Below are positions 371-40,723 of a stretch of 64,000 nt of DNA, piece after piece. Position 1 is the first letter of the stretch. Every line of letters begins with the position of its first letter. The position numbers were made by a program, and so were the translations under genes. The stretch comes from Mustelus asterias (lineage: Eukaryota). Under the pieces are notes generated by a model. That model saw only the letters and a list, made by a program, of their open reading frames with translations. It was not told the origin of the DNA and searched no databases. The stretch is from NCBI RefSeq assembly GCF_964213995.1, contig NC_135808.1, positions 12,834,001-12,898,000 on the forward strand, written 5' to 3'.

Positions 371-560
371 GTAAGTAATTTATGTGTTAATCGTTATATT
401 CCTAGCAATACTTTGATCATGACTCATGTTTTCCTATCAGCTATTTTGCTACTTTGCGGCTACTTGATTCCTGCACATCAGGTTTTATGTCTAGCCCAAT
501 TTAAAACAGGAGAGTTATGTGTTAATTTTCATATTCTGCAGCAATACTTTTGACGATTAC

Positions 561-836
561 TCATATTTTCCAATCGGCTATTTGTGTACTCTGAGGCCAG
601 TTGATACCTGCACACTGGACATGAACATCAAACTTCAAGTAAACATAATCCGGAAATAAAGATTAAAATCTGATGCCACCTTAACCTAATATATGTGGTT
701 AATTAAGCATGGAATTAAACACCATGCACAGGAAAATATTTGTCCATCAACATAAATCAGAATTTGAAAGGCATTGCAAATGGCAAATTGTTTTTATTTA
801 GATGGCTTGTCGCAGTCAGAGAAGTATTTCACGGAT
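561..836 (-). CDS. Gene A candidate terminal exon: either 836-829 (DP*, AATAAA at 798-793) or 607-561 (GINWPQSTQIADWKI*)
   Basis: Two phase-1-compatible acceptors (ccttctatcctgcctcatag and gtccagtgtgcag); cannot choose between them without RNA data, and the gene could continue beyond the window. Confidence 0.35.
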
Positions 837-994
837 CTATGAGGCAGGATAGAAGGCACACATATTTTAATGCGGTTAAAAAAGTCTAATCTAATGATGA
901 ATCAATTAGAGCTTCCTTGCCTTTCGGTAATAATGTTATATGCTGTTAACTGCATCAATGCAGGTTTACAATAAAAACTTGAATGGTAAAATGC

Positions 995-1257
995 CGGGAC
1001 AGCACGGTGGCATAGTGGTTAGCACTGCTGCCTCACAGCTCCAGGGGTCTGGGTTCGATTCCCGGCTTGGGTCACTGTCTGTGTGGAGTTTGCACATTCT
1101 CCCCGTGTCTGCGTGGGTTTCCTCCGGGTGCTCGGGCTTCCTCCCACAGTCCAAAAATTTGTGGGTTAGGTTGATTGGTGACGCTAAATTTGCCCATAGT
1201 GTCCCGGGATGTGTAGGTTAGCGGGGTAAATGTGTGGGGTCATGGGGATAGGGCCTG
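995..1257 (+). mobile_element. HE1-type V-SINE (3' truncated)
   Basis: tRNA-like A/B boxes plus V-domain TGTGGAGTTTGCACATTCTCCCCGTGTCTGCGTGGGTTTCCTCCGGGTGCTC. Confidence 0.9.
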
Positions 1258-1619
1258 GATGCTGTGGGATAAGGCTTGGGCTGGGGAATTGGCAGCAAAG
1301 ACAAAGTCACCCTTTCCCGATGCAGGGTCCCTTAATCAGGTACCAAGTACCTTTGAATAAATACCATTCCCTGGAGCTTGCAAGCAAATCTGATGAACCT
1401 CATGCTGAGTTCCCACCCACTACTGAGTGAATACAGCAGCAGCAGGATGTGGGCCTTTAGCAGGCATTAGTTACTTCATCTATGGGTCTTCCTGCCTTGA
1501 ACTTAATCAGGGCCACTATGGGAATACGACAGGGTCCCACCCAACACCACCCCATCCAATTAACTGGGCCCACTCCCCCCTTCAAACTTGTCTTGGGGAA
1601 TACATTGAATTGAAATTTA

Positions 1620-1997
1620 TAGAATCTCTACAGAAGTGCAGAAGGAGGCCATTCAGCCCATCGAGTCTGCACCAACTCTCCGACAGAGCATCTTAACCAG
1701 GCCCATCCCTCACCCTATCCCTGTAACTCCACTAATCCCCCAAATCTACACATCATGGGACATTAAGGGCCAGCCAGCGATGTCCCAACAAAATGATAAT
1801 TTAAAAATTTTAGCATGGCCAATCAACTCAACCTTCACATCTTTGGAGGGTGGGAGGAAACTGGAGTATCTGGAAGAAACTCACATAGACACGGGGAGAA
1901 CGTGCGAGCTCCACACAGTCACCGAAGACTGGAATTGAAACCGGATCCCTGGCGCTGTGAGGCAGCAGTGCTTTTCATTGTGCCACCCTGCCGCCCG
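1620..1997 (-). mobile_element. HE1-type V-SINE, CR1 tail
   Basis: Same consensus. Confidence 0.85.
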
Positions 1998-2084
1998 TGA
2001 TACAATTGTCTGAGTACGGCTGTGATATTGATAAAATCTGCTGTTGTGTCATGACAGACACCTGCAAATTGTTTAATTTCTCTG

Positions 2085-2215
2085 TGATTTGATTTATTAT
2101 TGTCACATGTATTTACAGTCAAAAGTATTGTTTCTTGTGCGCTATACAGACAAAGCATACCATAGGTAGAGAAGGAAAGGAGAGAGTGCAGAATGTAGTG
2201 TTACAGTTATAGCTC
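2085..2215 (-). mobile_element. Rex1/Babar 3' tail
   Basis: GTGACAATAATAAATCAAATCA tail, as at 9750, 20050 and 50760. Confidence 0.65.
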
Positions 2216-2342
2216 CCAACAAAGGGGGGAATGACAATTCTTTTGGGCCAGCGCTTTGACAATGCTGGAAAGGTGGTGGGATTATATTTGTAAGTCAAAT
2301 GGCCAAGCCGATATATAACTTTCCACAAAGCATTCCTCTTAC

Positions 2343-2399
2343 CTGAACATCTTGACTGGACATTTTCTTTTTCTGTTTGCTCCTGATTCCGCTTACAGC
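2343..2399 (-). CDS. Gene A cytoplasmic exon (GCKRNQEQTEKENVQSRCS)
   Basis: Strong acceptor ttttcttctcttag and donor CAG|GTAAGA, 57 nt, phase 1-1, open frame. Confidence 0.75.
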
Positions 2400-2707
2400 C
2401 TAAGAGAAGAAAACCTTGTTAACCTTTCTCTGGTATTGATCGATTGTTGCAATTGTTAGAACCCACAGTTTAAATCAATATTAGCACGTGAAAATAATGA
2501 TGCCTTTAAAAAATGCATTGTAACATTGTGCAGGTAAAGTTGCACATTCAACATTCCTGCGTCCTACTGTCTGTCAATGGACTCAAGAGCAGCACTCAGT
2601 GTCAATCACCTTATGAGGTAAATTTTTTTTCTTTTGTACGATCATGATTACTATTGTTTAATCAACATTGTGCTTACTTCAACCATGCAATTAGTTTTGA
2701 TGTTAAC

Positions 2708-2900
2708 AGCACGATGGCATGGTGGCTAGCATTGCTGTTCCACAGTGCCTGAGAATGGGGTTCAATTCTGGCCTCGAGTCACTGTCTATGTGGGGTTTGC
2801 GCTTCTCCTTGTGTCTACGTGGGTTTCCTCTGGGTGCTCTGGTTTCCTCTCACAATGCAAAGCTGTGCAGATTAGGTGGATTGGTCACGGTACATAGTCC
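2708..2900 (+). mobile_element. HE1-type V-SINE (degenerate)
   Basis: Same consensus. Confidence 0.75.
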
Positions 2901-3499
2901 TTGGGTACATAGTCCTAACTTGCACATTGAGAAGCTGACAGGATTGGGTCAAACATGGATTTATATCATTTCTGAGTTCATCTCCCTTAAATTCAACTGG
3001 GAATAATATTGTACAGGGTGTCGTTCATCTGGTTAATGTCAGCGCAACGCATTGGATGAAAGGCAATAAAAGATTGGAAGTAAAATGAACACTATTACAG
3101 AAATGAACAAGAACCCAGAAAATAATCAGGGGCAAGATTCTTCGGTCTCCCAGCCGTGTGTTTCCCACCAGCGGGAGGTGGCACATTGTTTGCTAATAGT
3201 GGGACTCTCCGGTTCCGCCGCTATCAATAAGAATTCGCATTGATGTCACAGGGTGGGGGCTATGGGATAAGGCGGGGGATTTGGCAGCAAAGGCAGATCA
3301 CCCTTTCCCGATGTCACCCCACGCTGGCGGGAAACCCGCAGCTGGGAGTGCATCGTTGGCAGGATCGGAAAATCCCGCCAGCGTGAACGGCTGGAGAATT
3401 CCAACCCAGATTTTATTTTCATGTTGCTGGACTGAGGTCACTTTGAACAGAAGAATAAATCATTCATTGATCTCCATCATTGATGGGTGAATGTCACCG

Positions 3500-3657
3500 A
3501 ATTGAATCCCTACAGTGCAGAAGGAAGCCATTTGGCCCATCGAATCTGCACTGACAACAATTCCACCCAGTTCTTATCGCCATAATTCCGCAAATTTACC
3601 CTGTTAATTTACCCTGACACTAAGGGGCAATTCAACAGTGGCCACCACTGTGCCACC
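3500..3657 (-). mobile_element. HE1-type V-SINE, internally deleted
   Basis: Tail and 5' tip only. Confidence 0.75.
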
Positions 3658-3771
3658 CAAACGTCTTTTAATTAATATTGGGTATTCATGATAAAACTGA
3701 AAAGTAAGAAAAAAATGTACAGACAGCATTTGTAACGGTACAGGAGAATGTCTGACAACATTATCGCTTAC

Positions 3772-3864
3772 CTCTTTGCGTTTTCACGGTGAAACATAAG
3801 AAGATAAAAATAACAATGAGGCTTAAATATCGAACTTTTGCTTCAACTCCTGGTCTTTGTTCCT
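3772..3864 (-). CDS. Gene A transmembrane exon (EEQRPGVEAKVRYLSLIVIFIFLCFTVKTQR)
   Basis: Acceptor cacatctacag|AG and donor AGAG|GTAAGC, 93 nt, phase 1-1; hydrophobic run followed by basic residues. Confidence 0.75.
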
Positions 3865-4070
3865 CTGTAGATGTGCAATAGATTAAGGAGTTAGTTATTT
3901 CACTGAAATAGTAGGAATAAGCATCGCTATTAGTTATTATTTGAGTACATTCATTTGGAAAAATTGGAACTTCCAATACACTAATACATGTCATTGATAT
4001 ATGTATCTTAGGTCACTGTGGTGACTGAATGAAAAGCAACCTATTAATTATTTCTGCTCCTGTTATTAAG

Positions 4071-4378
4071 CATAGAATCCCTATCGTGCAGAAGGAGGCC
4101 ATTCAGTCCAATGATCTTACACCGCCAACAATCCCACCCAGTCCCTATCCCGATAACCCCACGTATGTACCTTGTTAATCCTCCGACACTAATTTAGCAT
4201 GGCCAATCCACCTAACCCGCACATCTTTGGACTGTGGGAAGAAACCAGAGCACCCGGAGGAAACCCAAGCAGACAAAGGGAGAACATGCAAACTCCACAC
4301 CAATAGTCACTCAAGGCCAGAATTGAACCCAGGTCCCTGGTGCTGTGAGGCAGCAGTGCTAATCACTGTGCCACCACC
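4071..4378 (-). mobile_element. HE1-type V-SINE
   Basis: Same consensus. Confidence 0.9.
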
Positions 4379-5125
4379 GGAGATAGGAATCTTATTTCTT
4401 TCATTTACAGCAGCTTTTACCTGTCATTGAAAATAAACTGCTTCTAACTCTGGAGATATCGCAAACTTATGCAGGCTTTTAACTTTAGGTGGTTAACTTT
4501 GATAGCTAACGATAAAATGGATTCCTTTACTCCCCCTTGATCTTGCTCTCTGATATCTCTACCCAAGCCATGCTCATTATCCAGACAGTAAAGACGATTC
4601 CCCAGCTGTGCTCGCCCCAAAACTGGAGAATCCCGCCCGAGATCAGTGGACCTTTGCGTGGTCTGTCCCCGCCCGCTACAATTCCCATGGCGGGCGTGAT
4701 GAGAGAATTCCCCCAAAATTCTGCCGACATTGTATGTCACAGCTTCCACATACTAAATACATGGTTTAATTCGCAGCTGTAATTTCTCCTCATTGTACTT
4801 ACTATATATAATCCGCATTTATATATGGGAACAGATACCATTACACACATGCTTAATACTTATTCATTCAAATTTTATATTTCCATGACTTAGAGTATAT
4901 TCAGTTTCATAAACAGAATTATTCTGAATGTGGACTGTTAAGAAACACCAGCTTATTATTACATTGGTAATGTTGATTTTTTTTGTGGCCCATATTTTTA
5001 TTTATTTCCAATTTATTATTTTCAACCTGCCTTCTCATTAATGCTTTAGGTACATCGCATACTTCACCATGCCATCCCTACTGGGAGGGCAAGGTTCAAA
5101 TGAATTGATTTGGAAATAGACCCTT

Positions 5126-5476
5126 TCATAGAAATCATAGAAACCCGACAGTGCAGAAGTAGGCCTTTTGTCCCATTGAGTCTGCACTGATTCACTGATG
5201 GAGCATTCCACCCAGACCCTATCCTAGTAACCCTATATATTTACCCAGCTAATCCCCCATAATCTACACATCTTGGGACAGTAAGAGGCAATTTTAGCAT
5301 AGCCAATGCACCTAACCTGCACATCTTTGGACCGTGGGAGGAAACCGGAGCACCTAGAGGAAACTCACGCAGACACAGGGGGAAACATGCAAACTCCACA
5401 CAGACAGTGACCCAAGCCAGGAATCAAACCCGGGTCACTGGTGCTATGAGGCAGCCGTGCTAACCACTGTGCCACC
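5126..5476 (-). mobile_element. HE1-type V-SINE
   Basis: Same consensus. Confidence 0.9.
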
Positions 5477-5609
5477 CTTAAATGACAACATTATTAATCA
5501 CTGTTTAGGTTTCAGCTGGAATATTGTGTCCAAACTAGATGCCTCAATTTAAGAAGGGCATCGAAATATTGAAGAGGGTGCAGGAGAGGGGCAGACTGGC
5601 ATCAAGGAT

Positions 5610-5940
5610 TAGAATCATAGAATTCCTACAGTGTAGAAGGAGGCCATTCGGCCCATCAAGTCTGCACCGACCCCAATCCCACCCAACCCCTGTCCCCGTA
5701 GCCACATGTATTTACCCTGCTAGCCCCTCTGACACTGAGTGGTAATTTTAGCATGGCCAAACAACCTGACCCCGCACATCTTTGGACTGAGGGAGGAAAC
5801 CAGAGCACCCAGAGGAAACCTACGCAGACACGGGGAGAACATGCAAACTCCACACATACAGTGACCCAAGCTGGGAATTGAACCCGGATCCGTGGCACTG
5901 TGAGGCAGCTGTGCTAACCACTGTGCCGCCGTGCTGCCCT
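5610..5940 (-). mobile_element. HE1-type V-SINE
   Basis: Same consensus. Confidence 0.9.
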
Positions 5941-6056
5941 AGAGAATTCAGTTATGTGGGAACACTACAGAAATTGGGATTGTTCTCAGAGCAGAAAAGA
6001 TTACTGGGGCATTAAATAGAGGTGTTCCAAATTAACTTGGGATATGATATTAGCTT

Positions 6057-6415
6057 GGGCGGCACGGTAGCACAGTGGTTAGCACTGCTGCTTCACAGCT
6101 CCAGGGACCTGGGTTGAATTCCTGGCTTGCGTCACTGTCTGTGTGGAGTTTGCACATTCTCCTCGTGTCTGCGTGGGTTTCCTCCGGGTGCTCCGGTTTC
6201 CTCCCACAGTCCAAAGATGTGCGGGTTAGGTTGATTGGCCATGCTAAAAAATTGCCCCTTAGTGTCCTGAGATGCGTAGGTTAGAGGGATTAGTGGGTAA
6301 AATATGTAGGGATATGGGGATAGGGCCTGGGTGGGATTGTGGTCGGTGCAGACTCGATGGGCCGAATGGCCTCTTTCTGTACTGTAGGATTTCTATGATT
6401 TCTATGATTTCTATG
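6057..6415 (+). mobile_element. HE1-type V-SINE, full length and young
   Basis: Complete head and V-domain; (ATTTCTATG)n tail. Confidence 0.95.
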
Positions 6416-7189
6416 ACAGAGTAAATAAGGAGAAAGGCAGGAGGATCTGTAACTAAAAGACACAGATAATTGTCCAAAAAATGCCATGATCGGGAATTAG
6501 CTGCTGAAAGGCTGGAGGGAGCAGATTCAATGGTAACTTTCGAAATAGAATTGCACATGTACTTGAAAGAAAATATTTGCAGGGCTATGGGGATATTGGA
6601 AGGGAATGGGACTAATTAGATAGGTCTTTCAAAGAGGTAAAATGGGCTGAATGGCATTTTTGTGTTCTTTGATTGAACCTCAGTTTTGAAGGAAGGACAT
6701 AATTATTTTGATATCCGTTCATGGCGACGTGAACGTAACATGAGAACAAGTAAAGAGAGGTGATAACTCAGCTCACTCCCTTGTGTCAGATGTGGCAGTT
6801 TTCAAGTTGTGAACCTCTTGTCTTCTCATGCAAAACCTAAAGAAGAGCATCAGGTCTTCTGTTCAATTTCAGTGATTAGTTGGTACAAGGCCACAGAGAT
6901 ACAAACAGTTGTCTTCTGAGGAGGATTGAATGGTTCTGTATCAGTTACTGCAGGAGGCATTTTTATTCTGCAAAATTATCAGATTAGTGATTCATTTTGA
7001 GATGGATGCCTAGAATTAAGGTACAACTGGTGATATTAGTGGGCTAATGCCTAATTTGCTCCTGTTACATTCTTCTACCCTGTACCTTAATGGAAACCAT
7101 CATGATAAATCAAGATGAGGTAGCTGTTTCTAGCTTATCTTCCACAGAAACCCACTGTCCCCATTGCAGTATCAAACTGCGCATGTTTA

Positions 7190-7487
7190 AACTTTATTCA
7201 TTAGTGTCATAAGTAGGCTTACATTAACAGTGCAATGAAGTTACTGTGAAAATCCCTAGTCACCACACTCTGTTCGAGTACACTGAAGGAGAATTTAGCA
7301 TGGCCAATGCACCTAACCAGCACGCCTTTCGGACTGTGGGATGAAGCCGGAGCACCCAGAGGGAATCCAGGCAGACACGGGGAGAACTTGCAGACTCTGC
7401 ACAGACAGTGACCCAAGCCGGGAATCGAACCTGGGTCCCGAGCGCTGTGAGGCAGCAGTGCTAACCACTGTGCCACCGTGCTGCCCC
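7190..7487 (-). mobile_element. V-SINE with alternative tail B
   Basis: Tail ...TAATGTAAGCCTACTTATGACACTAAT. Confidence 0.9.
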
Positions 7488-7904
7488 TAGAAGGATGTCA
7501 GAGTTTTTCCTCCACTCCTAACCAAAGACAATTTCAGTTCAGTTGCATTCTGTACGGCAGAATTCAGATCTGAACAGTATTTTATCTGTTAGTACCAATG
7601 CGCTCATTTCCGACAATTGAATTGAATACATCAACAAAGAAGTGAACGATGAAGGAATATTGTGAATTAAATCCAGTGATCTGGCCACAAACAATTTAGT
7701 GAAGAGGTTACCACTATGTACTAGACCCCTTATAGGTTTCCAACCAGGTCAGTAGATAAAATGGATGAGATGTGATATTTACAGCTCTCCAATTCTGCCC
7801 CATTCATCAGACCCGATTTTAACCCTTCCGCCAGTGGCAACCATGCCTTCAGGTGCCGAGTTCAAGACTTTCCTCCTTAATCCTGAATGCCTCTCTATCT
7901 CCCT

Positions 7905-8465
7905 CATCTATACAAGGCACTAGTCAGACCACACACAGGAATGCTGTGAACAGTTTTGGTCGCCTTATCTAAGGAAAGATATACTGGCATTGGAGGCAGT
8001 TCAGGTTCACTAGGTTGATCCCAGGTATGGAGGGATTTTCTTATGAGATGAGATTAAGTAGGTTGAGCCCATACTCATTGGGGTTTAGAAGAATGAGAGG
8101 CGACCTTATCGAGACAGATAGGATTCTCAGGGAGCTTGACAGGGTAGATGCTAAGAAGCTGTTTCCCCTCATGGGACAGTCTAGGACCAGAGGTCATATT
8201 CTCGAGGTAAAGACAGAGATGAGGAGGATGCTTTCTCTCAGTGGGTAGTAAATCAGTGGGATTCTTTACCGCAGTGAGCTATAGAGGCTGTGTCCTTGTT
8301 CTGAGATCGACAGATTTTTAATCAGTAAGGGAATCAAGGGTTGTGGGGGTAAGGCGGGAAAGTGAAATTAAGGATTATCACATCAGATCGGTCATGATCT
8401 CATTAAATGGTGGAGCAGACTTGATGGGCTGAATGGCTACCTCTGCTCCTACATCTGATGGTCTC
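7905..8465 (+). mobile_element. Old CR1 LINE 3' fragment
   Basis: Degenerate LVRPH, RRMRGDLIE and SRTRGH motifs. Confidence 0.8.
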
Positions 8466-8831
8466 CCTTAAGACCCTCCTTGAAACCTATCCCCTTGACC
8501 AAGCTTTAGGTTGCTATACATCTAATTTTTCCTTAAGTGATTATTTGATAATTCCTCCTGTAAAACCGCTTGGGATATTTTACTCTGTTAAAGCACTGCA
8601 TAAATGTAGCTGGATTTTGACATGTTTCATATAATGTTCTCACCACATATTAAATAAACTTATCCTGACATTCTGCAAACTAAAACCAAAAATCTTTACA
8701 AAGCAGAGGAGGTTTGCATTGCTCTCAAGAAATAAATTCTGAATTTAATGTGGACCGCTGCTAATTCAATAAGTACATCATTGCTGGAAATATTCTTTAC
8801 AATTGAGTAAATCCAGTGGAGAAGTACCTAC

Positions 8832-9206
8832 CAATTCTGCAGCTGGAGACGGGCTGGACTGTTAACACAAACTTGGCCATCTCTGTTCCTGTTGAGTGGC
8901 TAATGGATAATTCATAAATCCCGCTATCGTTAAGCTGCAAATACTTCAGCAGCAATGAAGCATTCTCTGGGAAAAAAACGGTCCGAAGTCTGTAGTCATC
9001 TCGAACAGACTGGCGGTAATTGCATTCAGTGAGCTTGTTGCCTGTCTTCGACAGGCATCTATATTCCACAATTCTAGTCTTGGCTTTGAGCCATTTGATC
9101 CTGAGGTACCCGTCTGAGTTTGAGACCGTGTAAGAGGCGGATAGGAGCACGGACTGGCCAACAGTTCCATTCAGACTGTTCTGATTCACCTTCAGTGTTA
9201 CAGCGG
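8832..9206 (-). CDS. Gene A exon 2: Ig V-set domain, HEPACAM/CD2/CEACAM-like
   Basis: Acceptor ctccatctttag|CC and donor ATTG|GTAGGT, 375 nt, phase 1-1. Motifs NGTVGQSVLLSASY, RIKW, NASLLLKYLQLNDSGIYELSIS and FVLTV resemble the HEPACAM N-domain. Confidence 0.9.
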
Positions 9207-9348
9207 CTAAAGATGGAGATAATAGTTTCTTTAAAAGAAAAGTGACAATATATAGAATTACATTGTTTAAACTATTGCATATAAGCAATTGATTAATTGA
9301 TAAATAATTAATAAAAATTCATTGCATCTTACATATTTTAATGTGAAA

Positions 9349-9576
9349 GGATGGCACAATGGCACAGTGATTAACACTGCTGCATCGGTTTCGTCCGGGT
9401 GCTCCAGTTCCCTCCCACAGTCCGAAAGATGTGCTGGTTAGGTGCATTGGCCATGCAAAATTTCCCTTCAGTGTCAGGGGTAAATACCTGGGGTTGGGGC
9501 CTGGGTAGGATTGTTGTTGGTGCAAGCTCGATAGGCCAAATGGCCTCCTTCTGTACTCTAGGGACGCTATGATTCA
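9349..9576 (+). mobile_element. HE1-type V-SINE, internally deleted
   Basis: Same consensus. Confidence 0.8.
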
Positions 9577-9747
9577 ATGATGGTACTTGGTGTTTTTACA
9601 ACAATCGATGATAGTTTCAGGTCACCATTACTGAGACGAGTTTTTAATTACAGATGTTAAAAAATAATAAATTGAATTTAAATTCTGCCAGCTGCCATGG
9701 TGCGATTTGAACTTGTGTCCCCAGAGAATTTTGTTAGGCCTCTGGAA

Positions 9748-10040
9748 TTTGATTTGATTTATTATTGTCACATGTATTGGAATACAGTGAAAAGTTTCTT
9801 CTGCACTACATAACATTCTTGAGTACATAGGGGAGAAGGAAAGGAGAGGGTGCAGAATGTAGTGTTACAGTCATAGCTGGGGTGTAGAAAAAGATCAACT
9901 TAGTGCGAGGTAGGTCCATTCAAAAGTCTGATGGCAGCAGGGAAGAAGCTGTTCTTGAGTGGGTTGGTACGTGACCTCAGACTTTTGTATCTTTTTCCCG
10001 ACGGAATAAGGTGGAAGGAGAATGTCCGGGGTGCGTGGAG
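9748..10040 (-). mobile_element. Rex1/Babar 3' end
   Basis: Conserved NSFFPAAIRLLN-type end plus (ATCAA)n tail. Confidence 0.75.
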
Positions 10041-10707
10041 TACCATGGCTCCTTGTATCTGGGGCATTCCCCAACATCAGAAAAAGTTTTTTAATCGTTC
10101 ATGGGGTGTGGGCATCGCTGGTTGGGCCAACATTTATTATCCATCCCTGAAGACATTTAAGAGTTAATCATATTGCTGTGCCTCTGGAGTCACATGTAGG
10201 CCAGACCAGGTAAGGACGGCATTTTTCCTTCCCTAAAGGACATTAGTGAACCTGATGGCTTTTTAACGACAATCGACAATGGTTTCATGGCCATCATTAG
10301 GCTTTTAATCCCAGTGTACAGCAATTAATAATAACATTTCATTAATGTTTGTGTAAGGACTAACCCATATGGCTTTTATAAACCTTATATACTAACTGCT
10401 GAAAACAGTGGTGATATTGGGAGAATGTGGAACAGGGTCAAAGATATAATGGTCGAACAAACGGCCGTTAGACTGGCAGGAATTATTCTGACCCCTTTAG
10501 ATTTGACAAATTGTGGTTACTTTTAGAATCACATGGGACAAAAGGAGGTCAGTAGACCCATTGCGTCTCTTTGACAGAGATATCAGAATTGTCCTGCTGA
10601 CCAGATCTTTTAAGTGAACCTGCAAATATTTCCTCTTCTGAAATTCAACAGTTGTCAAACCACAAATGGAAATAAGTTCTCATTTGATTCGAAACACAAC
10701 TGAGTGA

Positions 10708-11725
10708 TAGAACATAGAACAGTACAGCACAGAACAGGCCCTTCGGCCCACGATGTTGTGCCGAGCTTTATCTGAAACCAAGATCAAGCTATCCCACTCC
10801 CTATCATCCTGGTGTGCTCCATGTGCCTATCCAATAACTGCTTAAATGCTCCTGAAGTGTCTGACTCCACTATCACTGCAGGCAGTCCATTCCACACCCC
10901 AACCACTCTCTGCGTAAAGAACCTACCTCTGATATCCTTCCTATATCTCCCACCACGAACCCTATAGTTATGCCCCCTTGTAATAGCTCCATCCACCCGA
11001 GGAAATAGTCTTTGAGCGTTCACTCTATCTATCCCCTTCATCATTTTATAAACCTCTATGAAGTCTCCCCTCAGCCTCCTCTGCTCCAGAGAGAACAGCC
11101 CTAGCTCCCTCAACCTTTCCTCATAAGACCTACCCTCCAAACCAGGCAGCATCCTGGTAAATCTCCTCTGCACTCTTTCCAGCGCTTCCACATCCTTCTT
11201 ATAGTGAGGTGACCAGAACTGCACACAATATTCCAAATGTGGTCTCACCAAGGTCCTGTACAGTTGCAGCATAACCCCACGGCTCTTAAACGCTAACCCC
11301 CCATTAATAAAAGCTAACACACTATAGGCCTTCTTCACAGCTCTATCCACTTGACTGGCAACCTTTAGAGATCTGTGGATATGGACCCCAAGATCTCTCT
11401 GTTCCTCCACAGTCTTCAGAACCCTACCTTTGACCCTGTAATCCACATTTAAATTAGTCCTACCAAAATGAATCACCTCACATTTATCAGGGTTAAACTC
11501 CATTTGCCATTTTTCAGCCCAGCTTTGCATCCTATCTATGTCTCTTTGCAGCCTACAACTCCCTCCACCTCATTCACTACTCCACCAATCTTGGTGTCAT
11601 CAGCAAATTTACTGATCCACCCTTCAGCCCCCTCCTCTAAGTCATTAATAAAAATCACAAAGAGCAGAGGACCAAGCACTGATCCCTGTGGCACTCCGCT
11701 AGCAACCTGCCTCCAATCCGAAAAT
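10708..11725 (-). mobile_element. Young 5'-truncated CR1 (HER1-like) LINE in gene A intron 1
   Basis: ORF 10784-11530 encodes the RT C-terminus; (TTCTATG)n tail; near-identical to 36555-37580. Confidence 0.95.
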
Positions 11726-11855
11726 GATGTGTTGATGAATTTTGTTAAACGATGGTTCTGTTATATACCATCGATGTATTATCCCAAATCATTCCTCCAA
11801 ATCTCTCACAATCTAAATAAAATTTGAAGCACGCTTAATTGTAGCAGACACTTAC

Positions 11856-11922
11856 CAATCAGAATGAAGTAACTAGAAGCAAAAAGATAGACACCGAACA
11901 TACTATTTCCTTTAAGTGGCAT
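11856..11922 (-). CDS. Gene A exon 1: signal peptide MPLKGNSMFGVYLFASSYFILI (phase-1 donor)
   Basis: ATG at 11922, 22 codons with a hydrophobic core, then G|GTAAG donor at 11855; phase matches the IgV exon acceptor. Confidence 0.8.
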
Positions 11923-17936: not shown

Positions 17937-19425
17937 ATGGAGTGGAAATATGCTCTCAAACAGGGCACAGAGACACAAAAATCAAGTTACAGAATACTGA
18001 TTAGAATGCGAATCCCTACAGCCAGCCAGATCTTAAAGATACAGACAATGTGGGTGGAGGGAGCATTAAGCACAGGTTAAAGAGATGTGTATTGTCTCCA
18101 GATAGGACAGCCTGCAAGTCCAGGAGGCAAGCTGTGGGGGTTACTGATAATGTGACATAAATCCAACATCCCGGTTGAGGCCGTCCTCATGTATGCGGAA
18201 CTTGGCTATCAGTTTCTGCTCAGCCACTCTGCGCTGTCGTGTGTCGTGAAGGCCGCCTTGGAGAACGCTTACCTGAAGATCAGAGGCTGAATGCCCGTGA
18301 CTGCTGAAGTGCTCCCCCACAGGAAGAGAACAGTCTTGCCTGGTGATTGTCGAGCGGTGTTCATTCATCCGTTGTCGTAGCGTCTGCATGGTTTCCCCAA
18401 TGTACCATGCCTCGGGACATCCTTTCCTGCAGCGTATCAGGTAGACAACGTTGGCCGAGTTGCAAGAGTTGGTACCGTGGACTTGTGGTTATCACGTCCT
18501 CAAGATCCTTTCTTCTTTATCTTAAACAGTCCTGAAGGGTAGATGGTGTTCTCACGTGAGATGGTGTTCTTGTGCCCGGTAGATGGTGTTCTCACGTGAG
18601 ATGATGGCATCCGTGTCGATGATCCGGCACGTCTTGCAGAGGTTGCTGTGGCAGGGTTGTGTGGTGTCGTCGTCACTGTTCTCCTGAAGGCTGGGTAGTT
18701 TGCTGCGGACAATGGTCTGTTTGAGGTTGCGCGGTTGTTTGAAGGCAAGAAGTGGGGGTGTGGGGATGGCCTTGGCGATATGTTCGTCTTCATCAATGAC
18801 ATGTTGAAGGCTCCGGAGGAGATGCCGTAGCTTCTCCGCTCCGGGGAAGTACTGGATGGCGAAGGGTACTCTGTCCACCGTGTCCTGTGTTTGTCTTCTG
18901 AGGAGGTCGGTGCGGTTTTTCGCTGTGGCGCGTCGGAACTGTTGATCAATGAGTCGAGCACCATATCCTGTTCTTATGAGGGCATCTTTCAGCGTCCGGA
19001 GGTGTCTGTTGTGACGTCCACCCACCCACATTGTCTGTATCTTTAAGATCTGGCTGGCTGTAGGGATTCGCATTCTAATCAGTATTCTGTGACTTGATTT
19101 TTGTGTCTCTGTGCCCTGTTTGAGAGCACATTTCCACTCCATCTGACAAAAGAGCAGCGCTCCGAAAGCTAATGGTATTTGCTACCAAATAAACCTGTTG
19201 GACTTTAACCTGGTGTTGTTAAAACTCTTACTGTGTTAACCAAGTTTTGACAGAGGAAGACATCTTGGGATTTTTAGACAAGCGTAGAGGTAATTTCCAT
19301 GAGTTCATTTCAGATCAACTGCCGAAGAGCTCCCTGTTATACTTATTTCAGTAAGAAGTCTCATAACACTCTTCTTGGAGATCCTCTCCACTTGGAGCCG
19401 GCAGTTTGCGGTGTCGATGGTAGCC

Positions 19426-22241: not shown

Positions 22242-25200
22242 TGGGCAGAATTTTCTCAAAGAAAGTGTCGAACAGGAGAGAAAACGGTAGGTTTTCTTGC
22301 TGGTTTTTTCAGTCAGGTAAGTAACATAAATTTATGGCACTCTGCAAAAACTGAGCCTTCATGCGATTCTCGCCAGTAGTTGCGGCTGGAGCCTCAGCTC
22401 ACCTGTGAAGTTCGCTGCTGAACGCATCGCACAGGAGCCTAATCTCCCAGTATACTGTGTACAGTCCCTCCCATGAACATCACTCCCCTTTCTTCCATTG
22501 CCACCCCAGGCATCGTCCCCACACCTGCCATCACTGCCCCAGACACCACACGGCCCCCCCTCACCCCCATTGCCATCCCTGCAGAGTTCCAACCATCCCC
22601 CCCCTCCCTCCCCGATCACCACCCTCACCAGTCAACCCCCCCAATTGCCACCCCTCATGATAAATCCCTTCCCTGCAAAGTTTCCAAATTTCCTCGCCCC
22701 TTCCACGACCTCCCGTCTGTTTGGCTCCCCCCCTTCTCAAGCTTGGGCCCTCAGGCCCCACCTCCACATGCCCCAGCTCTTTGGCACTGCCAGGCTGCCT
22801 GCTGGGCAGTGCCAGAGTGCCCAGTGGGCAGTACCAGGGTGCTGGCACTGCCCCATCGGCACCAACCACCTCTGCCCCCGACCACCTGGGGGCTTCAATG
22901 GCCTCTAGACCCATCAGCAAGGTCATCACGACTGGTCCCCCATTGGTGGGGACCATCTGTGATTCCCGCCAGTGAGGACATAAAACATAGAACATAGAAA
23001 AACTACAGCACAAACATTCCCTTCGGCCCACAAGTTGCGCCGGTCGTGTCCCTACCTACCTGGGATTATAAATAGACTTACCTATAACCCTCAATCCTAT
23101 TAGGTCCCATGTACTCATCCGGAAGCCTCTTAAAAGACCCTATCGAGTCTGCCTCCACCACCACTGACGGCAGCCGATTCCACTCACCCACCACCCTGAG
23201 TGAAAAACTTACCCCTGACATCTCCTCTGTACCTACTCCCCAGCATCTTAAACCTGTGTCCTCTCGTAGCAACCATTTCAACCCTGGGAAAAAGCCTCCG
23301 AGAGTCCACCCGATCTATACCTCTCAACATCTTGTAAACCTCTATCAGGTCACCTCTCATCCTTCGTCTCTCCAAGGAGAAAAGACCGAGCTCCCTCAAC
23401 CTATCCTCATAAGGCATGCCACCCAATCCAGGCAACATCCTTGTAAATCTCCTCTGCACCCTTTCTATGGCTTCTACATCCTTTCTGTAATGAGGCGACC
23501 AGAACTGGGCACAGTACTCCAGGTGGGGTCTGACAAGGGTCTTATAAAGCTGCATCATTATCCCGCGACTCCTAAACTCAATCCCTCGATTGATGAAGGC
23601 CAGCTCACCATACACCTTCTTAACCACCTCCTCCACCTGCGAGGCCGATTTAAGAGTCCTATGGACCCGGACCCCAAGGTCCTTCTGATCCTCTACACTG
23701 CTAAGAGTCTTACCCCTGATATTATACTCCTTCATCCCATTTGACCTGCCAAAATGGACCACTACACATTTATCCGGGTTGAAGTCCATCTGCCACTTCC
23801 CCGCCCAGTCTTGCATCCTATCTATGTCACTCTGCAGCTTCTGACATCCCTCCAAACTTTCCACAACACCACCAATCTTCGTGTCGTCAGCAAACTTGCC
23901 AACCCATCCCTCCACTTCCTCATCCAGGTCATTTATGAAGATGACAAACAGCAAGAGTCCCAGAACAGATCCCTGGGGCACTCTACTGGTGACCAACCTC
24001 CATTCAGAAAAAGACCCATCTACAACCACTCTCTGCCTTCTACAGGCAAGCCAGTTCTGGATCCACAAGGCAACAGCCCCTTGGATCCCATGCCCTCTCA
24101 CTTTCTCGAGAAGTCTTGCATGGGGGACCTTATCGAACGCCTTGCTGAAGTCCATGTAAACCACATCTACCGCTTTTCCTTCGTCAATGTGTTTCGTCAC
24201 ATTTTCAAAGAACTCCACCAGGCTCGTAAGGCACGATTTGCCTTTGACAAAGCCGTGCTGACTACTTTTGAGCAGACTAAACTTCTCGAAATGTTCATAA
24301 ATCCTGTCCCTCAGGATCTTCTCCATCAACTTACCAACCACTGAGGTTAGACCCACCGGTCGGTAATTTCCTGGGCTATCACTATTCCCTTTCTTGAATA
24401 TAGGAACCACATCCGCAATCCTCCAATCCTCCGGAACCTCTCCCATCTCCATCGACGACGCAAAGATCATTGCCAGAGGCTCTGCAATCTCTTCCCTCGC
24501 CTCCCACGGTAACCTGGGGTACATCCCATCCGGTCCTGGCGACTTATCTATCCTGATGCTATTCAAAATTTCCAACACATCCTCTTTCTTAACGTCCACA
24601 AACTCAATCTTTTCAGTCCGCCGCAATCCTGCAGTACAACCCCCAGGTCTTTTTCCACCGTGAATACCGAGGTAAAGTATTCGTTAAGCACCTCTGCTAT
24701 TTCTTCCGGTTCTGTACAGACTTTCTCACCTTCACATTTTATAGGTCCGATACCTTCACATCTCATCTTTTTACTCTTTACATATTTATAGAATGCCTTA
24801 GGGTTCTCCTTAATCTTACCTGCCAAGTCCTTCTCGTGACCGCTTCTGGCTCTCCTAATTTCCTTCTTAAGTCCCTTCCTACAAACCGTATACTCATTTA
24901 GATCCCTATCATTGCCTAGCTCTCTGAACCTTTTGTACGCTTTCCTTTTCTTTTTGACTAGGTTCAGCACAGCTTTCGTGCACCACAGTTCCCATAACCT
25001 ACCAAAACCTCCCTGTCTCATCGGAACATTGTCATTCAGAACTCTAGACAAACATTCCTTGAAAATCTGCCACCTTACTTCGGTACTTTTCCTCGAGAAT
25101 ACCTCCTTCCAATCACGCCTCTAATCTCCCGCCTGATGGCTTCATATTTCCCCTTACTCCAGATAAACACTTTCCTACCTTGCCTGATCCTATCTCTTTC

Positions 25201-26933
25201 CAATGCTAGCGTAAAGGAGATAGAGTTATGATCACTATCCCCAAGATGCTCCCCCACTGAGAGATCTGACACCTGTCCAGGCTCATTAGCCAGTACCAGA
25301 TCGAGTACAGCCTCTCCTCTTGTAGGCTTATCCACATGCTGTGTCAGGAAACCTTCCTGACCACACCTAACAAACTCCTCCCCATCCAGCCCCCTTATCC
25401 TAGGGATATTCCAATCGATGTTTGGGAAATTAAAGTCTCCCATCACGACAACCCTATTATCACTACATCTCTCCAGGATCTGTTTCCCTATCTGCTCCTC
25501 AACATCCCTGTTACTGTTGGGCGGCCTATAGAAAACACCTAGCAAAGTTATCGACCCCTTCCCACTCCGAACTTCCACCCACAGAGACTCCGTAGACAAT
25601 CACTCCACGGCGTCCACTTTCTCTACAGCTGTGACACTATCCCTGATCAGCAGTGCCACTTCCCCCCCCTCTTTTGCCTCCCTCTCTGTCCTTTCTGAAA
25701 CATCTGAAGCCCGGCACCTGAAGTATCCAGTCCTGTCCCTGTCCCCAAGTCTCCGTAATGGCCACCACATCACACTTCCAAGCATCGATCCACACTCTAA
25801 GCTCATCCACTTTATTCACTACACTCCTGGCGTTAAAATAGACATATCTCAGACATTTGGTCTGAGCGCTCCCCTTCTCCATCACCCATCTATTCTCCCT
25901 CTTACCCTATCTACAATCCTTCTCTATTTGCAGGCTACCCTCCTCGCTCTCAGTCACCTCACCTCGATTCCCTCCCCCCAACCTTTCTAGTTTAAAGTCT
26001 CCCCAGTAGTCTTTGCCAACCTTCCTGCCAGGATATTGGTCCCCCTGGGATTCAAGTGCCACCCGTCTTTTTTGTACAGGTCTAACCTGCCCCTAAAGAG
26101 GTCCCAGTGATCCAGGAACCTGAATCCCTGCCCCCTGCTCCAGTCCCTCAGCCACGCATTCATCCTCCACCTCACTCCATTCCTACTCTCACTTTCCTGT
26201 GGCACAGGCAGCAATCCCAAGATTACTACCTTTGCGTTCCTCCTTCTCAACTGTCTACCTAACTCCCTATATTCTCTTTTCATGACCCCTTCCCTCTTCA
26301 TACCTATGTCAGCGGTACCAATGTGTACCATGACCTCTGATTCCTCTCCCTCCCCCCTCAGGATTTCTGGGACGCGACCAGAGACATCCCGGATCCTGGC
26401 ACCAGGGAGGCAGACCACCATCCGAGACTCCCGTCTGCCTCCGCAAAAACGCCTGTCTGACCCCCTTACTGTTGAGTCCCAGATTAATACTGCCTTCCTC
26501 CTCCTTTCCTTTGCCCTCTGAGTTACAGGGCCGGACTCTGCTCCAGAGACACGGCCACTGCTGCTTCCCCCAGGTGGGCTGTCCCCCCCAGCAGTACTCA
26601 GACAGGAGTACTTATTGTGAAGGGGCACATCCACCGGGGTGCTCTCTATCACCCGAGCTTTCCCCTTCCTGGACGTTACCCACTTGTCTGCCTCCCGTGG
26701 CCCTGGTGTGACCACCTGCTGATAGCTCCTGTCTATCGCCTCCTCATTTTCCCTAACCAGACGAAGATCTTTAACCTTGTAAATCATGTCCTTAATTCTG
26801 AAATCAGCCTTGCGCCCTTTCTGGGATTTCGCCAGCAAAACAGTGCTGGCAAAATCACAAAAGGCACCCGATTTTTTGACTTTCGCTCTATCTTACCAGT
26901 GGTTTTGCGTGGCGAGCCGGGAAGATCACGCCC
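22242..26933. mobile_element. Related GC-rich non-autonomous repeat, interrupted by the CR1 at 22985-26765
   Basis: GGGCAGAATTTT start and GGAAGATCACGCCC end; shares GGCACTGCCAGG..GGTGC blocks with 15838-16820. Confidence 0.5.
22985..26765 (-). mobile_element. Near-full-length CR1 LINE: ORF1 (SGNH esterase) and frameshifted ORF2 (APE-RT)
   Basis: ORFs 25987-26838 (DSTVRG, HIGT, DGWHLN), 25637-25885, 25075-25599, 24563-25051 and 23184-24626 (PQGSVLG, FADD). Confidence 0.95.
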
Positions 26934-36554: not shown

Positions 36555-39500
36555 AGAACATAGAACATAGAACAGTACAGCACAGAACAGGCCCTTCGGC
36601 CCACGATGTTGTGCCGAGCTTTATCTGAAACCAAGATCAAGCTATCCCACTCCCTATCATCCTGGTGTGCTCCATGTGCCTATCCAATAACCGCTTAAAT
36701 GTTTCTAAAGTGTCTGACTCCACTATCACTGCAGGCAGTCCATTCCACACCCCAACCACTCTCTGCGTAAAGAACCTACCTCTGATATCCGTCCTGTATC
36801 TCCCACCACGAACCCTATAGTTATGCCCCCTTGTAATAGCTCCATCCACCCGAGGAAATAGTCTTTGAACGTTCACTCTATCTATCCCCTTCATCATTTT
36901 ATACACCTCTATTAAGTCTCCCCTCAGCCTCCTCCGCTCCAGAGAGAACAGCCCCAGCTCCCTCAACCTTTCCTCATATGACCTACCCTCCAAACCAGGC
37001 AGCATCCTGGTAAATCTCCTCTGCACTCTTTCCAGCGCTTCCACATCCTTCTTATAGTGAGGCGACCAGAACTGCACACAATATTCCAAATGTGGTCTCA
37101 CCAAGGTCCTGTACAGTTGCAGCATAACCCCACGGCTCTTAAACTCCAACCCCCTGTTAATAAAAGCTAACACACTATAGGCCTTCTTCACAGCTCTATC
37201 CACTTGACTGGCAACCTTTAGAGATTTGTGGATATGGACCCCAAGATCTCTCTATTCCTCCACAGTCTTCAGAACCCTACCTTTGACCCTGTAATCCACA
37301 TTTAAATTTGTCCTACCAAAATGAATCACCTCACATTTATCAGGGTTAAACTCCATTTGCCATTTTTCAGCCCAGCTTTGCATCCTATCTATGTCTCTTT
37401 GCAGCCTACAACAGCCCTCCACCTCATCCACTACTCCACCAATCTTGGTGTCATCAGCAAATTTACTGATCCACCCTTCAGCCCCCTCCTCTAAGTCATT
37501 AATAAAAATCACAAAGAGCAGAGGACCAAGCACTGATCCCTGCGGCACACCGCTAGCAACCTGCCTCCAATCTGAAAATTTTCCATCGACCACCACCCTC
37601 TGTCTTCGGTCAGACAGCCAGTTGCCTATCCAATCGGCCAACTTTCCCTCAATCCCACACCTCCTCACTTTCATCATAAGCCGACCATGGGGGACCTAAT
37701 CAAACGCCTTACTAAAATCCATGTATATGACATCAACTGCCCTACCTTCATCAACACACTTAGTTACCTCCTCAAAAAATTCTATCAAATTTGTGAGGCA
37801 CGACTTGCCCTTCACGAATCCGTGCTGACTATCTCGGATTAATCCGCATCTTTCTAAATGGTCGTAAATCCCATCCCTAAGGACCCTTTCCATCAATTTA
37901 CCAACCACCGAAGTAAGACTAACCGGTCTATAATTACCAGGGTCATTTCTATTCCCTTTCTTAAACAGAGGAACAACATCCGCCATTCTCCAGTCCTCTG
38001 GCACCATCCCCGTGGACAGCGAGGACCCAAAGATCAACGCCAAAGGCTCTGCAATCTCATCCCTTGCCTCCCACAGAATCCTAGGATACATTTCATCAGG
38101 CCCAGGGGACTTATCGACCTTCAGTTTATTCAAAACTGCCAAGACATCCTCCCTCCGAACATCTATTTCCTCCAGCCTATTAGCCTGTAACACCTTCTCT
38201 TCCTCAAAAACATGGCCCCTCTCCTTGGTGAACACTGAAGAAAAGTATTCATTCATCACCTCGCCTATCTCTACTGACTCCAGACACAAGTTCCCACTAC
38301 TGTCCTTGACCGGCCCTAACCTCACCCTGGTCATTCTTTTATTCCTCACATAAGAGTAAAAAGCCTTGGGGTTTTCCTTGATCCGACCCGCCAAAGACTT
38401 CTCATGTCCCCTCCTTGCTCTCCTAAGCCCCTTTTTCAGCTCATTCCTTGCTAACTTGTAACCCTCAATCGAGCCATCTGAACCTTGTTTCCTCATCCCT
38501 ACATAAGCTTCCCTCTTCCTTTTCACAAGACATTCCACCTCTTTTGTGAACCATGGTTCCCTCACTCGGCCATTTCCTCCCTGCCTGACAGGAACATACC
38601 TATCAAGGACATCCAGTATTTGTTCCTTGAAAAAGTTCCACTTTTCATTAGTTCCTTTCTCTGACAGTTTCTGTTCCCAACTTATGCCCCCTAATTCTTG
38701 CCTAATCGCATCATAATTACCCCTCCCCCAATTGTAAACCTTGCCCTGCCGTACGGCCCTATCCCTCTCCATTGCAATAACAAAAGACACCGAATTGTGG
38801 TCACTATCTCCAAATTGCTCTCCCACAACCAAATCTAACACTTGGCCCGGTTCATTTCCCAGTACCAAATCCAATGTGGCCTCACCTCTAGTCGGCCCAT
38901 CCACATATTGTGTCAGGAAACCCTCCCGCACACACTGCATAAAAACTGCCCCATCCAAACTATTTGACCTACAAAGGTTCCAATCAATATTTGGAAAGTT
39001 AAAGTCCCCCATGACAACTACCCTGTGACCCCCACACATATCCATAATCTGCTTAGCAATTTCTTCCTCCACATCTCTATTACTATTTGGGGGCCTATAG
39101 TAAACTCCTAGCAACGTGACCGCTCCTTTCCTATTTCTAACTTCAGCCCATATTACCTCAGTGTGCAGATCCCCCACGAAATGCCTTTCCGCAGCCGTTA
39201 AACTATCCTTGATTAACAATGCCACTCCTCCACCTCTTTTACCAGCTTCCCTACACTTAGTGAAACATCTATACCCCGGAACGTCCAACAACCATTCCTG
39301 TCCTTGTTCTACCCACGTCTCCGTAATGGCCACAACATCGTAGTCCCAAGTACCAATCCACGCCCCAAGTTCATCTACCTTGTTCCGGATGCTCCTTGCA
39401 TTGAAGTAGACACACTTCAACCCACCTTCCTGTCTACCAGTACCCACCCTTGACCCTGATACCTTCCCCAATACCTCACCACCCTCACTGACTTCTGGAC

Positions 39501-40219
39501 TACAACTCCCTTTCCCACTCCCCTGACAAATTAGTTTAAACCCCCCTGAAGAGCCGTAACAAATTTCCCTCCGAGGATATTGGTGCCCCTCTGGTTCAGG
39601 TGCACCCCGTCCTGTTTGTACAGGTCCCACCTTCCCCAGAACGTGTTCCAATTATCCACGTATCTGAAACCCTCCCTCCTACACCATCCCTGCAACCACA
39701 TATTTAACTGCACTCTCTCCCTGTTCCTCAACTCGCTATCACGTGGTACCGGCAACGTACCAGAGATGACCACATGTTTCGTCTTGGCTCTCAGCTTCCA
39801 GCCCAGCTCCAGAAATTCCTGCTTTAAATCCCCGTCCCTTCTCTTACCTATGTCATTGGTACCAATGTGCACCACGACTTGTGACTGTTTCCCCTCCCCC
39901 TTCAGAATCTGGAAAACACGGTCTGAGACATCACGGACCTTGGCATCCGGTAGGCAACATACCATCCGTGAGTCTCTTTTGCTGCCACAGAACCTCCTAT
40001 CTATCCCTCTAACTAACGAGTCCCCAATAACTATCGCCCTCCCGCTCTCCCCCTTTCCCTCCCGAGCCACAGAGACGGACACAGTGCTGGAGATCCTCTC
40101 ACTGCGGCTCCCCACTGGTATGTCATCCCCCTCAACCGTATCCAAAGCGGAATACTTGTTGCTAAGGGGAACGACCACCGGGGATCCCTGCATGGACTGC
40201 TTCCTCCCAGCCCCTCTCA
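36555..40219 (-). mobile_element. Nested near-full-length CR1: ORF1 esterase part plus ORF2 with two in-frame stops
   Basis: ORFs 39531-40193 (GDSLVRG, HIGTND, DGVHLN), 37696-39651, 37252-37677 and 36637-37203; the last three share one frame. Confidence 0.96.
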
Positions 40220-40723
40220 GAGAGCATTGTCAGAAGCTACAGAAGTATATAGATAGGCTGGAAATTTGGGCAAAGAAATGGCAGATGGAGTTCAATCCTG
40301 ATAAATGCGAAGTGATGCATTTTGGTAGAAATAATGTAGGGAGGAGCTATACAATAAATGGCAGAACCATAAAGGGTGTAGATACGCAGAGGGACCTGGG
40401 TGTGCAAGTCCACAGATCCTTGAAGGTGACGTCACAGGTGGAGAAGGTGGTGAAGAAGGCATATGGCATGCTTGCCTTTATAAGACGGGGCATGGAGTAT
40501 AAAAGTTGGGGTCTGATGTTGCAGATGTATAGAACGTTGGTTCGGCCGCATTTGGAAGACTGCGTCCAGTTCTGGTCGCCACACTACCAGAAGGACGTGG
40601 AGGCTTTGGAGAGTTTACCAGGAGGTTGCCTGGTATGGAGGGGCTTAGTTATGAGGAGAGATTGGGTAAACTGGGCTTGTTCTCCCTGGAAAGACGGAGG
40701 ATGAGGGGAGACTTAATAGAGGT

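Follow-up and report, generated by a model that had tools for sequence, protein, structure and literature searches.

Receptors of the leukocyte receptor complex (LRC) and the FcR-like receptors of Xenopus carry an arginine (Arg) at the N-terminal end of the transmembrane (TM) segment, within an NxxR motif, and this residue mediates association with FcR-gamma (PMC2413239, PMC6557307). The coupling of NxxR to FcR-gamma is reported as established for LILRA2, OSCAR, GPVI, NKp46, Fc-alpha-R, and the FcR-like and SLAM-like receptors of Xenopus (PMC2413239, PMC4536121, PMC6557307). Moreover, activating receptors have been described as arising from inhibitory ones and as being short-lived (PMC2213150). 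Here, a 64,000-nucleotide stretch of the Mustelus asterias genome (contig NC_135808.1, positions 12,834,001 to 12,898,000 of the forward strand), hereafter the window, was analyzed. A gene on its minus strand, at positions 561 to 11,922, most likely encodes, as judged from its sequence and that of its relatives, an activating-type member of a family of paired immunoglobulin (Ig)-superfamily receptors.

The gene model holds, and by its exon structure the gene is read as a real cell-surface receptor gene in a shark. The spliced product comprises 212 amino acids from five minus-strand exons with canonical AG/GT ends, and every intron is in phase 1. The splice sites, the signal peptide, the exon of the variable-type Ig (IgV or V) domain, and the TM exon are all intact.

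11922-11856, minus strand: exon 1, ATG and signal peptide of about 23 residues, with the phase-1 donor GTAAGT; the N-termini of the shark homologues P0003, P0004, and P0006 match
9206-8832, minus strand: exon 2, IgV domain, 375 nt, phase 1-1; identified by the Pfam V-set match, AlphaFold, and 76% identity to S. canicula LOC119976031
3864-3772, minus strand: exon 3, short stalk and TM segment (VEAKV-R-YLSLIVIFIFLCFTV-K), 93 nt, phase 1-1
3830..3832, minus strand: Arg159, which occupies the outer end of the TM helix and precedes the first cytoplasmic Lys by 16 residues
2399-2343, minus strand: exon 4, first tail exon, 57 nt
607-561, minus strand: probable last exon (INWPQSTQIADWKI-stop, with TGA at 563-561), a decayed homologue of the last tail exon of the family

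The last exon is the weakest part of the model, its homology support being modest. This structure agrees with the initial annotation, which had proposed phase-1 exons for a signal peptide, an IgV domain, a TM segment, and a short tail, giving about 200 amino acids. Its claim of a single Ig domain also stood, as a search of 3865-8831 for a missed IgC2 exon found no Ig exon. None of the 19 stop-free minus-strand stretches of at least 55 amino acids between 3700 and 8900 matched an Ig family, and elsewhere on the minus strand such a match was found in one of 76 stretches of at least 85 amino acids, this one being the V exon itself. When the family profile was run over all six frames of the window, only the V and TM exons matched. 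The surrounding DNA is repeat-rich vertebrate DNA, self-repeats making up 47% of the window. In the sequencing-run search for the gene, four runs of one study contained 0.21-0.80 of its words, 20 presumed-RNA runs contained 0.05-0.08, and no RNA run containing the gene was listed.

The TM segment is the part of the protein that points to an activating receptor. Arg159 is followed by a hydrophobic core of 15 residues, in line with the short core of about 15 amino acids seen at the outset, and the core is short because the gene has the Arg form. The initial annotation had overlooked both Arg159 and the activating/inhibitory pattern of the family. Exon 3 was 61-78% identical to the TM exon of shark and ray relatives with the same residue (Arg-type). 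At the position 16 residues before the first cytoplasmic Lys, the Arg-type proteins have Arg, and all eight uncharged shark and ray relatives shown have Pro; in Hemitrygon P0016, Arg occupies the same place in a TM segment that is otherwise of the uncharged type. Classic NxxR TM segments with almost no tail were found in two cartilaginous-fish members, Pristis pectinata LOC127585852 (P0136) and P0138, and these bear on how old FcR-gamma-type coupling is. The NxxR sawfish paralogue is located on a contig of identical length to that of an Arg-type family gene, and its presence suggests, from sequence comparison, that an FcR-gamma-type adaptor exists in cartilaginous fish.

The two receptor forms were compared among relatives obtained from a profile search, in which 1205 representatives had E values of at most 0.001 and the best 150 (50%-representatives) were analyzed. 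Of these 150, 108 had a V match of at least 45 bits; 30 without a TM segment were dropped, and 78 were classed. A tyrosine (Tyr) motif resembling the immunoreceptor tyrosine-based inhibitory or switch motif (ITIM or ITSM) was found in 1 of 33 proteins with Arg and a core of at most 20 residues (median tail, 14 residues), compared with 27 of 45 others (median tail, 67 residues). When only matches of at least 90 bits were counted, the split was 1/13 versus 16/24. TxYxxI/V motifs occur in the uncharged siblings, and none occurs in the gene in the window, whose tail has no Tyr at all, as the initial annotation had indicated in seeing no tyrosine motif there.

Ten within-species pairs, each of a Tyr-less gene and an ITIM/ITSM gene, were picked by hand. 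The V domains of the two forms were 80-97% identical within species in all seven bird pairs and in Hemitrygon, and the best cross-species V identity of the Tyr-less genes with their counterparts was 58-80%, below the within-species value in the bird pairs and Hemitrygon. Moreover, the Arg-type V domains of sharks and rays were rejected as one clade (approximately unbiased test, p 7e-111; 6 changes). Thus, the V domains group by species and not by form, which indicates paired receptors. As far as the sequences tell, the architecture is that of a paired activating/inhibitory family, with related ectodomains on a form with a charged TM segment and a short tail and on a form with an uncharged TM segment and ITIM/ITSM motifs; the pattern is weaker within sharks and rays.

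With a probability of roughly 0.6, the receptor would, by analogy with known paired receptors, bind the same ligand as an inhibitory sibling and signal through an adaptor bearing the immunoreceptor tyrosine-based activation motif (ITAM). In this scheme, the V domain would bind a cell-surface or microbial ligand that the inhibitory sibling also binds, and Arg159 would pair in the membrane with acidic residues of an ITAM-bearing adaptor dimer of the FcR-gamma or CD3-zeta type, CD3-zeta being the alternative adaptor to FcR-gamma. The adaptor would then supply the signal via Syk/ZAP70-type kinases, which act downstream of ITAM adaptors. Leukocytes would be the probable site. The inhibitory tail would have been dismantled by an extra base in exon 4, the loss of the micro-exon with the first Tyr, and a stop before the second Tyr motif; dismantling of this kind accompanies the origin of activating receptors from inhibitory ones.

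Several observations weigh against this reading. The Fisher p value of 5e-8 for the form split among the 78 classed proteins was calculated from counts that are not phylogenetically independent. Among the shark and ray proteins alone (n = 23), the motif was found in 5 of 14 Arg-type proteins and 6 of 9 others, which is not significant (p 0.21); two of the five motifs in the Arg-type proteins sit in read-through ends. On the shark and ray tree, the form label was no more clustered or scattered than in shuffles (43 of 500 as low). Homogenization of the V domain was weak in the catshark (67%) and the sawfish (57%, under the 60% seen between species). In the case of the birds, the Tyr-less genes have Arg about 26 residues out, one has no Arg, and all were classed as non-Arg in the form count, and in duck the two pair members may be isoforms from a single locus. 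Furthermore, the Asn three residues before Arg159 is not present (EAKVR, no NxxR), and NxxR was found in just 4 of 44 Arg-type rows, the sawfish paralogue included. One survey reported no FcR-gamma homologue in shark genomes (PMC4016189). Three of the eight Arg-type shark and ray relatives with full tails keep a canonical ITIM/ITSM, and this window has no inhibitory sibling.

The tail of the gene departs from that of its relatives, and two of the alternatives concern it. In Arg-type shark relatives, the tail is about 50-75 residues long and contains two sites for Tyr motifs, which are frequently altered. In five of the eight Arg-type shark and ray relatives with full tails, neither homologous site carries a canonical motif, Tyr being changed to His, Phe, or Arg, or the +3 residue being changed. 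Exon 4 matches the homologues over 13 residues and then shifts frame; the shifted (+1) frame fitted the last six residues better in 12 of the 13 homologues that could be parsed (14 tried, 1 unparsed). Accordingly, exon 4 appears to be one base longer than in the homologues, whose exon length was derived from proteins only, with its last six codons shifted and its end in phase 1. Neither the tail profile nor peptide scans located a micro-exon with the first Tyr in 608-2342. To the left of exon 4, the last exon is accompanied by a second copy.

380..477, minus strand: tandem copy of the last-exon region, 79% over 100 bp, with a stop at the third codon

Against shark last-exon peptides, the tandem copy ranked 1 of 137 phase-1 acceptors in 1-2342 and 3 of 4486 in the whole window, and the exon at 607 ranked 2 of 137 and 13 of 4486, respectively. 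The first eight residues of the exon at 607 ranked 1 of 127948 against ray tail units in a post hoc test. A hidden Markov model of the ray tail units gave no match at this exon. The two are probably decayed last-exon homologues that end ahead of the second Tyr motif. With its extra base, exon 4 could be spliced to them in frame.

The same lesions could be signs of gene death in a birth-and-death cluster, in which case the gene would be a decaying copy or pseudogene yielding little or no functional protein. The three separate tail lesions, namely the extra base, the absent micro-exon, and the stops, are what such decay would leave, and the reported short life of activating paired receptors (PMC2213150) agrees with it. 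However, the reading frame stays open through exons 1-3, whose splice sites are canonical, and the branches of the gene and its catshark orthologue are of equal length (0.12 and 0.12). The lesions are confined to the tail, a part that has been lost repeatedly among Arg-type relatives and is entirely absent in some, and the extra base brings exon 4 into phase with the last-exon homologue. Decay of the whole gene is accordingly considered unlikely, although no other alternative fares better.

A slightly smaller chance is given to a dual-function receptor with a long tail. Here, the extra base would be an assembly error or a minor allele, the true tail exons would lie to the left of the window, and the protein would combine the Arg TM segment with a tail of 65 residues and one ITIM/ITSM-like motif, as in Mustelus, Heterodontus, and Pristis relatives. 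A distance of 560 bases separates the end of the gene from the edge of the window, all eight Arg-type relatives with full tails are in the range given above, and three keep a motif. Moreover, exon 4 was the sole match in the window to the homologue tail profile, and the exon at 607 was missed among the top 15 of 63932 positions when 22-residue peptides were used for scanning. Such a tail nevertheless requires a third, intact exon set further to the left as an added assumption, beyond the two decayed last-exon copies at 607 and 470, and no micro-exon lies in 608-2342.

The activating reading, to which we return, rests its ectodomain on exon 2, which matched Pfam V-set PF07686 with an E value of 1.6e-10 and 41.6 bits (cut-off 26) and, weakly, Pfam Receptor_2B4 (E 0.005). 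AlphaFold with a 106-row alignment gave a confident V fold, with a predicted local distance difference test (pLDDT) score of 91 and a predicted template modelling score (pTM) of 0.83; a 23-row alignment had given a pLDDT of 50, and the larger alignment was used instead. The domain carries three N-glycosylation sequons (N35, N104, and N115). The cysteine (Cys) positions are listed below.

9136..9138, minus strand: Ala46, where the B-strand Cys stands in CAR, from the alignment to CAR
8908..8910, minus strand: Leu122 (DSGIYEL), where the F-strand Cys stands, from the alignment to CAR
9022..9057, minus strand: Cys73-x10-Cys84, extended C'-C'' hairpin, from strand positions in the AlphaFold model
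8839..8841, minus strand: Cys145 (SSCRI), unpaired and membrane-proximal

The initial annotation had described a V domain without B- and F-strand cysteines, an extra Cys pair in the C'-C'' region, and a membrane-proximal Cys (SSCRI), and all three features were recovered. In the model, whose strands C' and C'' span 43-52 and 61-67 in domain numbering, Cys73 stands at the end of the first and Cys84 at the start of the second, so placed that they would probably form a replacement disulfide closing the long C'-C'' hairpin. Among 130 homologous domains, none has the B-F Cys pair, 126 have V, I, or L in the F-strand Cys column, and 88 have at least two Cys between the C and D strands; the last feature was found in 20 of the 23 shark and ray domains. 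Across this alignment, the missing B-F pair and the C'-C'' cysteines are family traits, not lineage quirks. Cys145, the would-be dimer cysteine, is not conserved in the alignment. Cys is present at its position in 3 of the 16 shark and ray relatives shown, with Tyr in the closest orthologue, so that the earlier idea of a disulfide-linked dimer is weakly supported. The homodimer prediction for the V domain scored 0.03 (mark 0.32), which speaks neither for nor against a dimer.

The best fold match was the V domain of VCBP3 (Z 15.7, root-mean-square deviation 2.1, 116 residues aligned), with many V domains tied behind it. The matches, with VCBP3, PD-L1, TIGIT, CAR, nectins, and CD48 all inside a span of about 2 Z units, are generic V domains that do not point to a family. 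Neither HEPACAM nor VSTM5 was among the fold matches listed, which excludes nothing, and ESM Atlas returned generic V-set clusters only. The initial suggestion of an adhesion or immune receptor stood in its second part, an immune receptor whose only Ig domain is a V domain of the CD2/CEACAM type, while its first part is kept as a rival. An adhesion or junction molecule (HEPACAM/VSTM5/CEACAM-like), homophilic via the V domain and possibly dimerized through Cys145, with Arg merely a membrane-boundary residue, would account for a V domain that, like CEACAM N domains and CD2/SLAM, has no B-F disulfide, for CAR, B7-H3, JAML, and CEACAM being the best sequence matches among solved structures, and for the automated names "HEPACAM-like", "A33-like", and "CEACAM-like" on some relatives, but is the least probable of the three alternatives, given the copy-number variation, the one to six V domains and the two-form TM and tail split unlike conserved adhesion genes, the poor conservation of Cys145, and profile E values of 1e-12 or weaker to solved adhesion molecules compared with 1e-30 to 1e-134 within the family.

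The V-domain search returned 28 proteins, with identities of 58-76% in sharks, 48-59% in rays, and 38-45% in amphibians, turtles, a gull, and chicken; unnamed Logan rows reached 46%. Named family rows came from chimaera, sharks, rays, amphibians, turtles, alligator, birds, platypus, and echidna, and weaker members, not on the tree, from gar, sturgeon, lungfish, and coelacanth. With relatives from chimaera to birds and monotremes, the earlier description of the receptor as lineage-specific did not hold. No marsupial, placental, teleost, or squamate name was found among the 28, 120, and 120 matches listed and the 30 looked up, most of the 1205 representatives being unnamed and the word-based search not exhaustive. 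On the 56-row V-domain tree, the gene and S. canicula LOC119976031 form a sister pair (100/97) within a shark and ray clade of 25 rows (100/98), and the two are 75% identical over 190 aligned residues. The CD2/SLAM-like V domains of neighboring genes fall outside the family on the same tree, where their branches are long.

Most family genes are annotated as "uncharacterized", and the rest bear automated "-like" names from six unrelated families, among which HEPACAM-like, CEACAM-like, and A33-like are misleading. No description of the family, including LOC771657, was found in the literature, judged from titles and the beginnings of abstracts and with subscription papers and supplements outside the scope; the available parts of PMC4079198, PMC5112662, and PMC5528877 do not describe it. 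The family is apparently unnamed and ancient, though it may have been described before. In ducks, chicken, and frogs, the proteins P0030, P0018, P0034, and P0039 have two to six tandem copies of the same V domain. Chiloscyllium plagiosum isoform X3 (P0239) is annotated with the TM exon skipped in frame, a possible soluble form, and the phase-1/phase-1 TM exon of the gene in the window would allow the same skip.

Paralogues were found on contigs of identical length in the catshark (3), Hemitrygon (5), and platypus (4) and were read as gene clusters. The gene models P0221 (Chiloscyllium), P0042 and P0017 (rays), P0013, and P0026 fuse family members to neighboring CD2/SLAM-like V-C2 genes, some with several TM segments, which indicates that genes of a second Ig family (V-C2) are interspersed in the cluster. 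In the case of the kittiwake, family members are annotated as TMLHE isoforms, which suggests that the family cluster adjoins TMLHE and points to a region other than that of HEPACAM. Human TMLHE lies at Xq28 and HEPACAM at 11q24. The initial annotation had placed the gene in a tandem cluster with a "gene B". Clustering is borne out in other genomes, while the window holds no second Ig gene that would make gene B a paralogue.

It is tentatively proposed, though on balance doubtful in its entirety, that these genes form an undescribed paired leukocyte-receptor family about 450 million years old, in which the B-F disulfide was swapped for the Cys-bridged C'-C'' hairpin. The family would lie near TMLHE on the ancestral segment that gave rise to the mammalian X and would have persisted from chimaeras to birds and monotremes but disappeared in marsupials and placentals. 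Its Arg-type shark members, with NxxR in one sawfish paralogue, would imply that FcR-gamma/zeta-type coupling of innate receptors predates bony fish, against a published claim. Paired receptor families usually last only briefly and are confined to single lineages; one traceable from cartilaginous fish to monotremes would, if true, be a new entry among ancient innate immune receptors. Chicken, duck, turtle, and Xenopus-like frogs are tractable models for the family, and the shark Arg-type members allow the presence of an FcR-gamma-like signaling partner in sharks to be tested directly. Taken alone, the gene in the window is nothing unusual for the family, a member observed in the course of losing its inhibitory tail; it is the family that is of interest.

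Other elements were located in the window.

60254-60150, minus strand: candidate TM exon (phase 1-1) with about 19 hydrophobic residues and no charge in the core, belonging to an upstream gene on this strand
about 48438-48357, minus strand: possible tail exon of the same upstream gene
40723-45401, minus strand: long terminal repeat (LTR) retrotransposon inside a long interspersed nuclear element (LINE), with 274-bp LTRs that are 100% identical and a 1380-codon open frame matching protease, reverse transcriptase (RT), RNase H, and integrase
23187-26892 and 36640-40229, minus strand: LINE copies, both long, with a GDSL-esterase first open reading frame (ORF1) and pieces of an endonuclease/RT ORF2
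18144-18488: GIY-YIG fragment

The two upstream exons are perhaps the earlier gene B, and the upstream gene could be an uncharged sibling or one of the V-C2 neighbors; no ectodomain was found for them in the window and no match among the fetched proteins. The LTR retrotransposon is a very recent insertion.

Comparison with known systems separates the family from most of those that share its V domain. CD300/TREM/pIgR-like V receptors, including skate MDIR and fish NITR/DICP, keep the B-F disulfide and mostly have a mid-TM Lys with DAP12. They resemble the gene in their single V domain, paired forms, and extra disulfide near C-C', and membership is rejected because the B-F disulfide is absent in 130 of 130 family domains. 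HEPACAM, HEPACAM2, and VSTM5 share the V domain without B-F Cys; they are conserved, essentially single-copy genes, in contrast to the multi-copy, fast-evolving family described here. Membership in HEPACAM/HEPACAM2, with their V-then-C2 order, is rejected, as no Ig exon lies between 3865 and 8831. VSTM5 is a single-V protein of about 200 amino acids. It has been described as a conserved gene present in mammals (PMC5528877), no mammalian HEPACAM or VSTM5 was found among the 28, 120, and 120 matches listed, and VSTM5 orthology is unlikely. More generally, orthology to HEPACAM (two-Ig), VSTM5, CD2/SLAM, or CEACAM found no backing, no such named gene having surfaced as an orthologue among the matches listed.

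The CEACAMs have a V (N) domain without the disulfide, paired inhibitory and activating members, and, in some, repeated V domains. Activating CEACAMs have been reported to carry their own ITAM-like motif (PMC5112662), in place of which the gene has the TM Arg. Since the family is abundant in birds and CEACAMs are reported as absent from chicken, turkey, and zebra finch (PMC3628338), CEACAM membership is probably ruled out; the markers LIPE/TOMM40/APOE are not in the window, synteny being an indirect guide. In the CD2/SLAM family (CD2, CD48, CD58, 2B4, and NTB-A), the N-terminal V domain has no B-F disulfide. This likeness extends to the weak Receptor_2B4 match, the ITSM-type motifs in the inhibitory siblings, and fold Z scores of 12.8-14.1; however, the gene has no C2 domain and has the long Cys-bridged C'-C'' hairpin, and membership, which implies a V and C2 ectodomain, is rejected on its single V domain.

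LRC and FCRL ectodomains are of the C2 type. The NxxR-TM receptors (LILRA2, PIR-A, OSCAR, GPVI, NKp46, and Fc-alpha-R, and XFL, ILR, and CD2/SLAM-like receptors in Xenopus) are described as having, like the gene in the window, Arg at the outer TM end followed by about 15 hydrophobic residues and a short tail, and inhibitory siblings with an uncharged TM segment, as in its family (PMC2413239, PMC4536121, PMC6557307). The gene differs from them in its single V domain and in having no NxxR Asn. Within its own family, S. canicula LOC119976031, chicken LOC771657, platypus LOC114812814, echidna LOC119929970, and chimaera LOC103190391 have the same V signature and Arg TM segment, and the gene in the window is distinguished from them by its shortened, Tyr-free tail and its extra Cys145.

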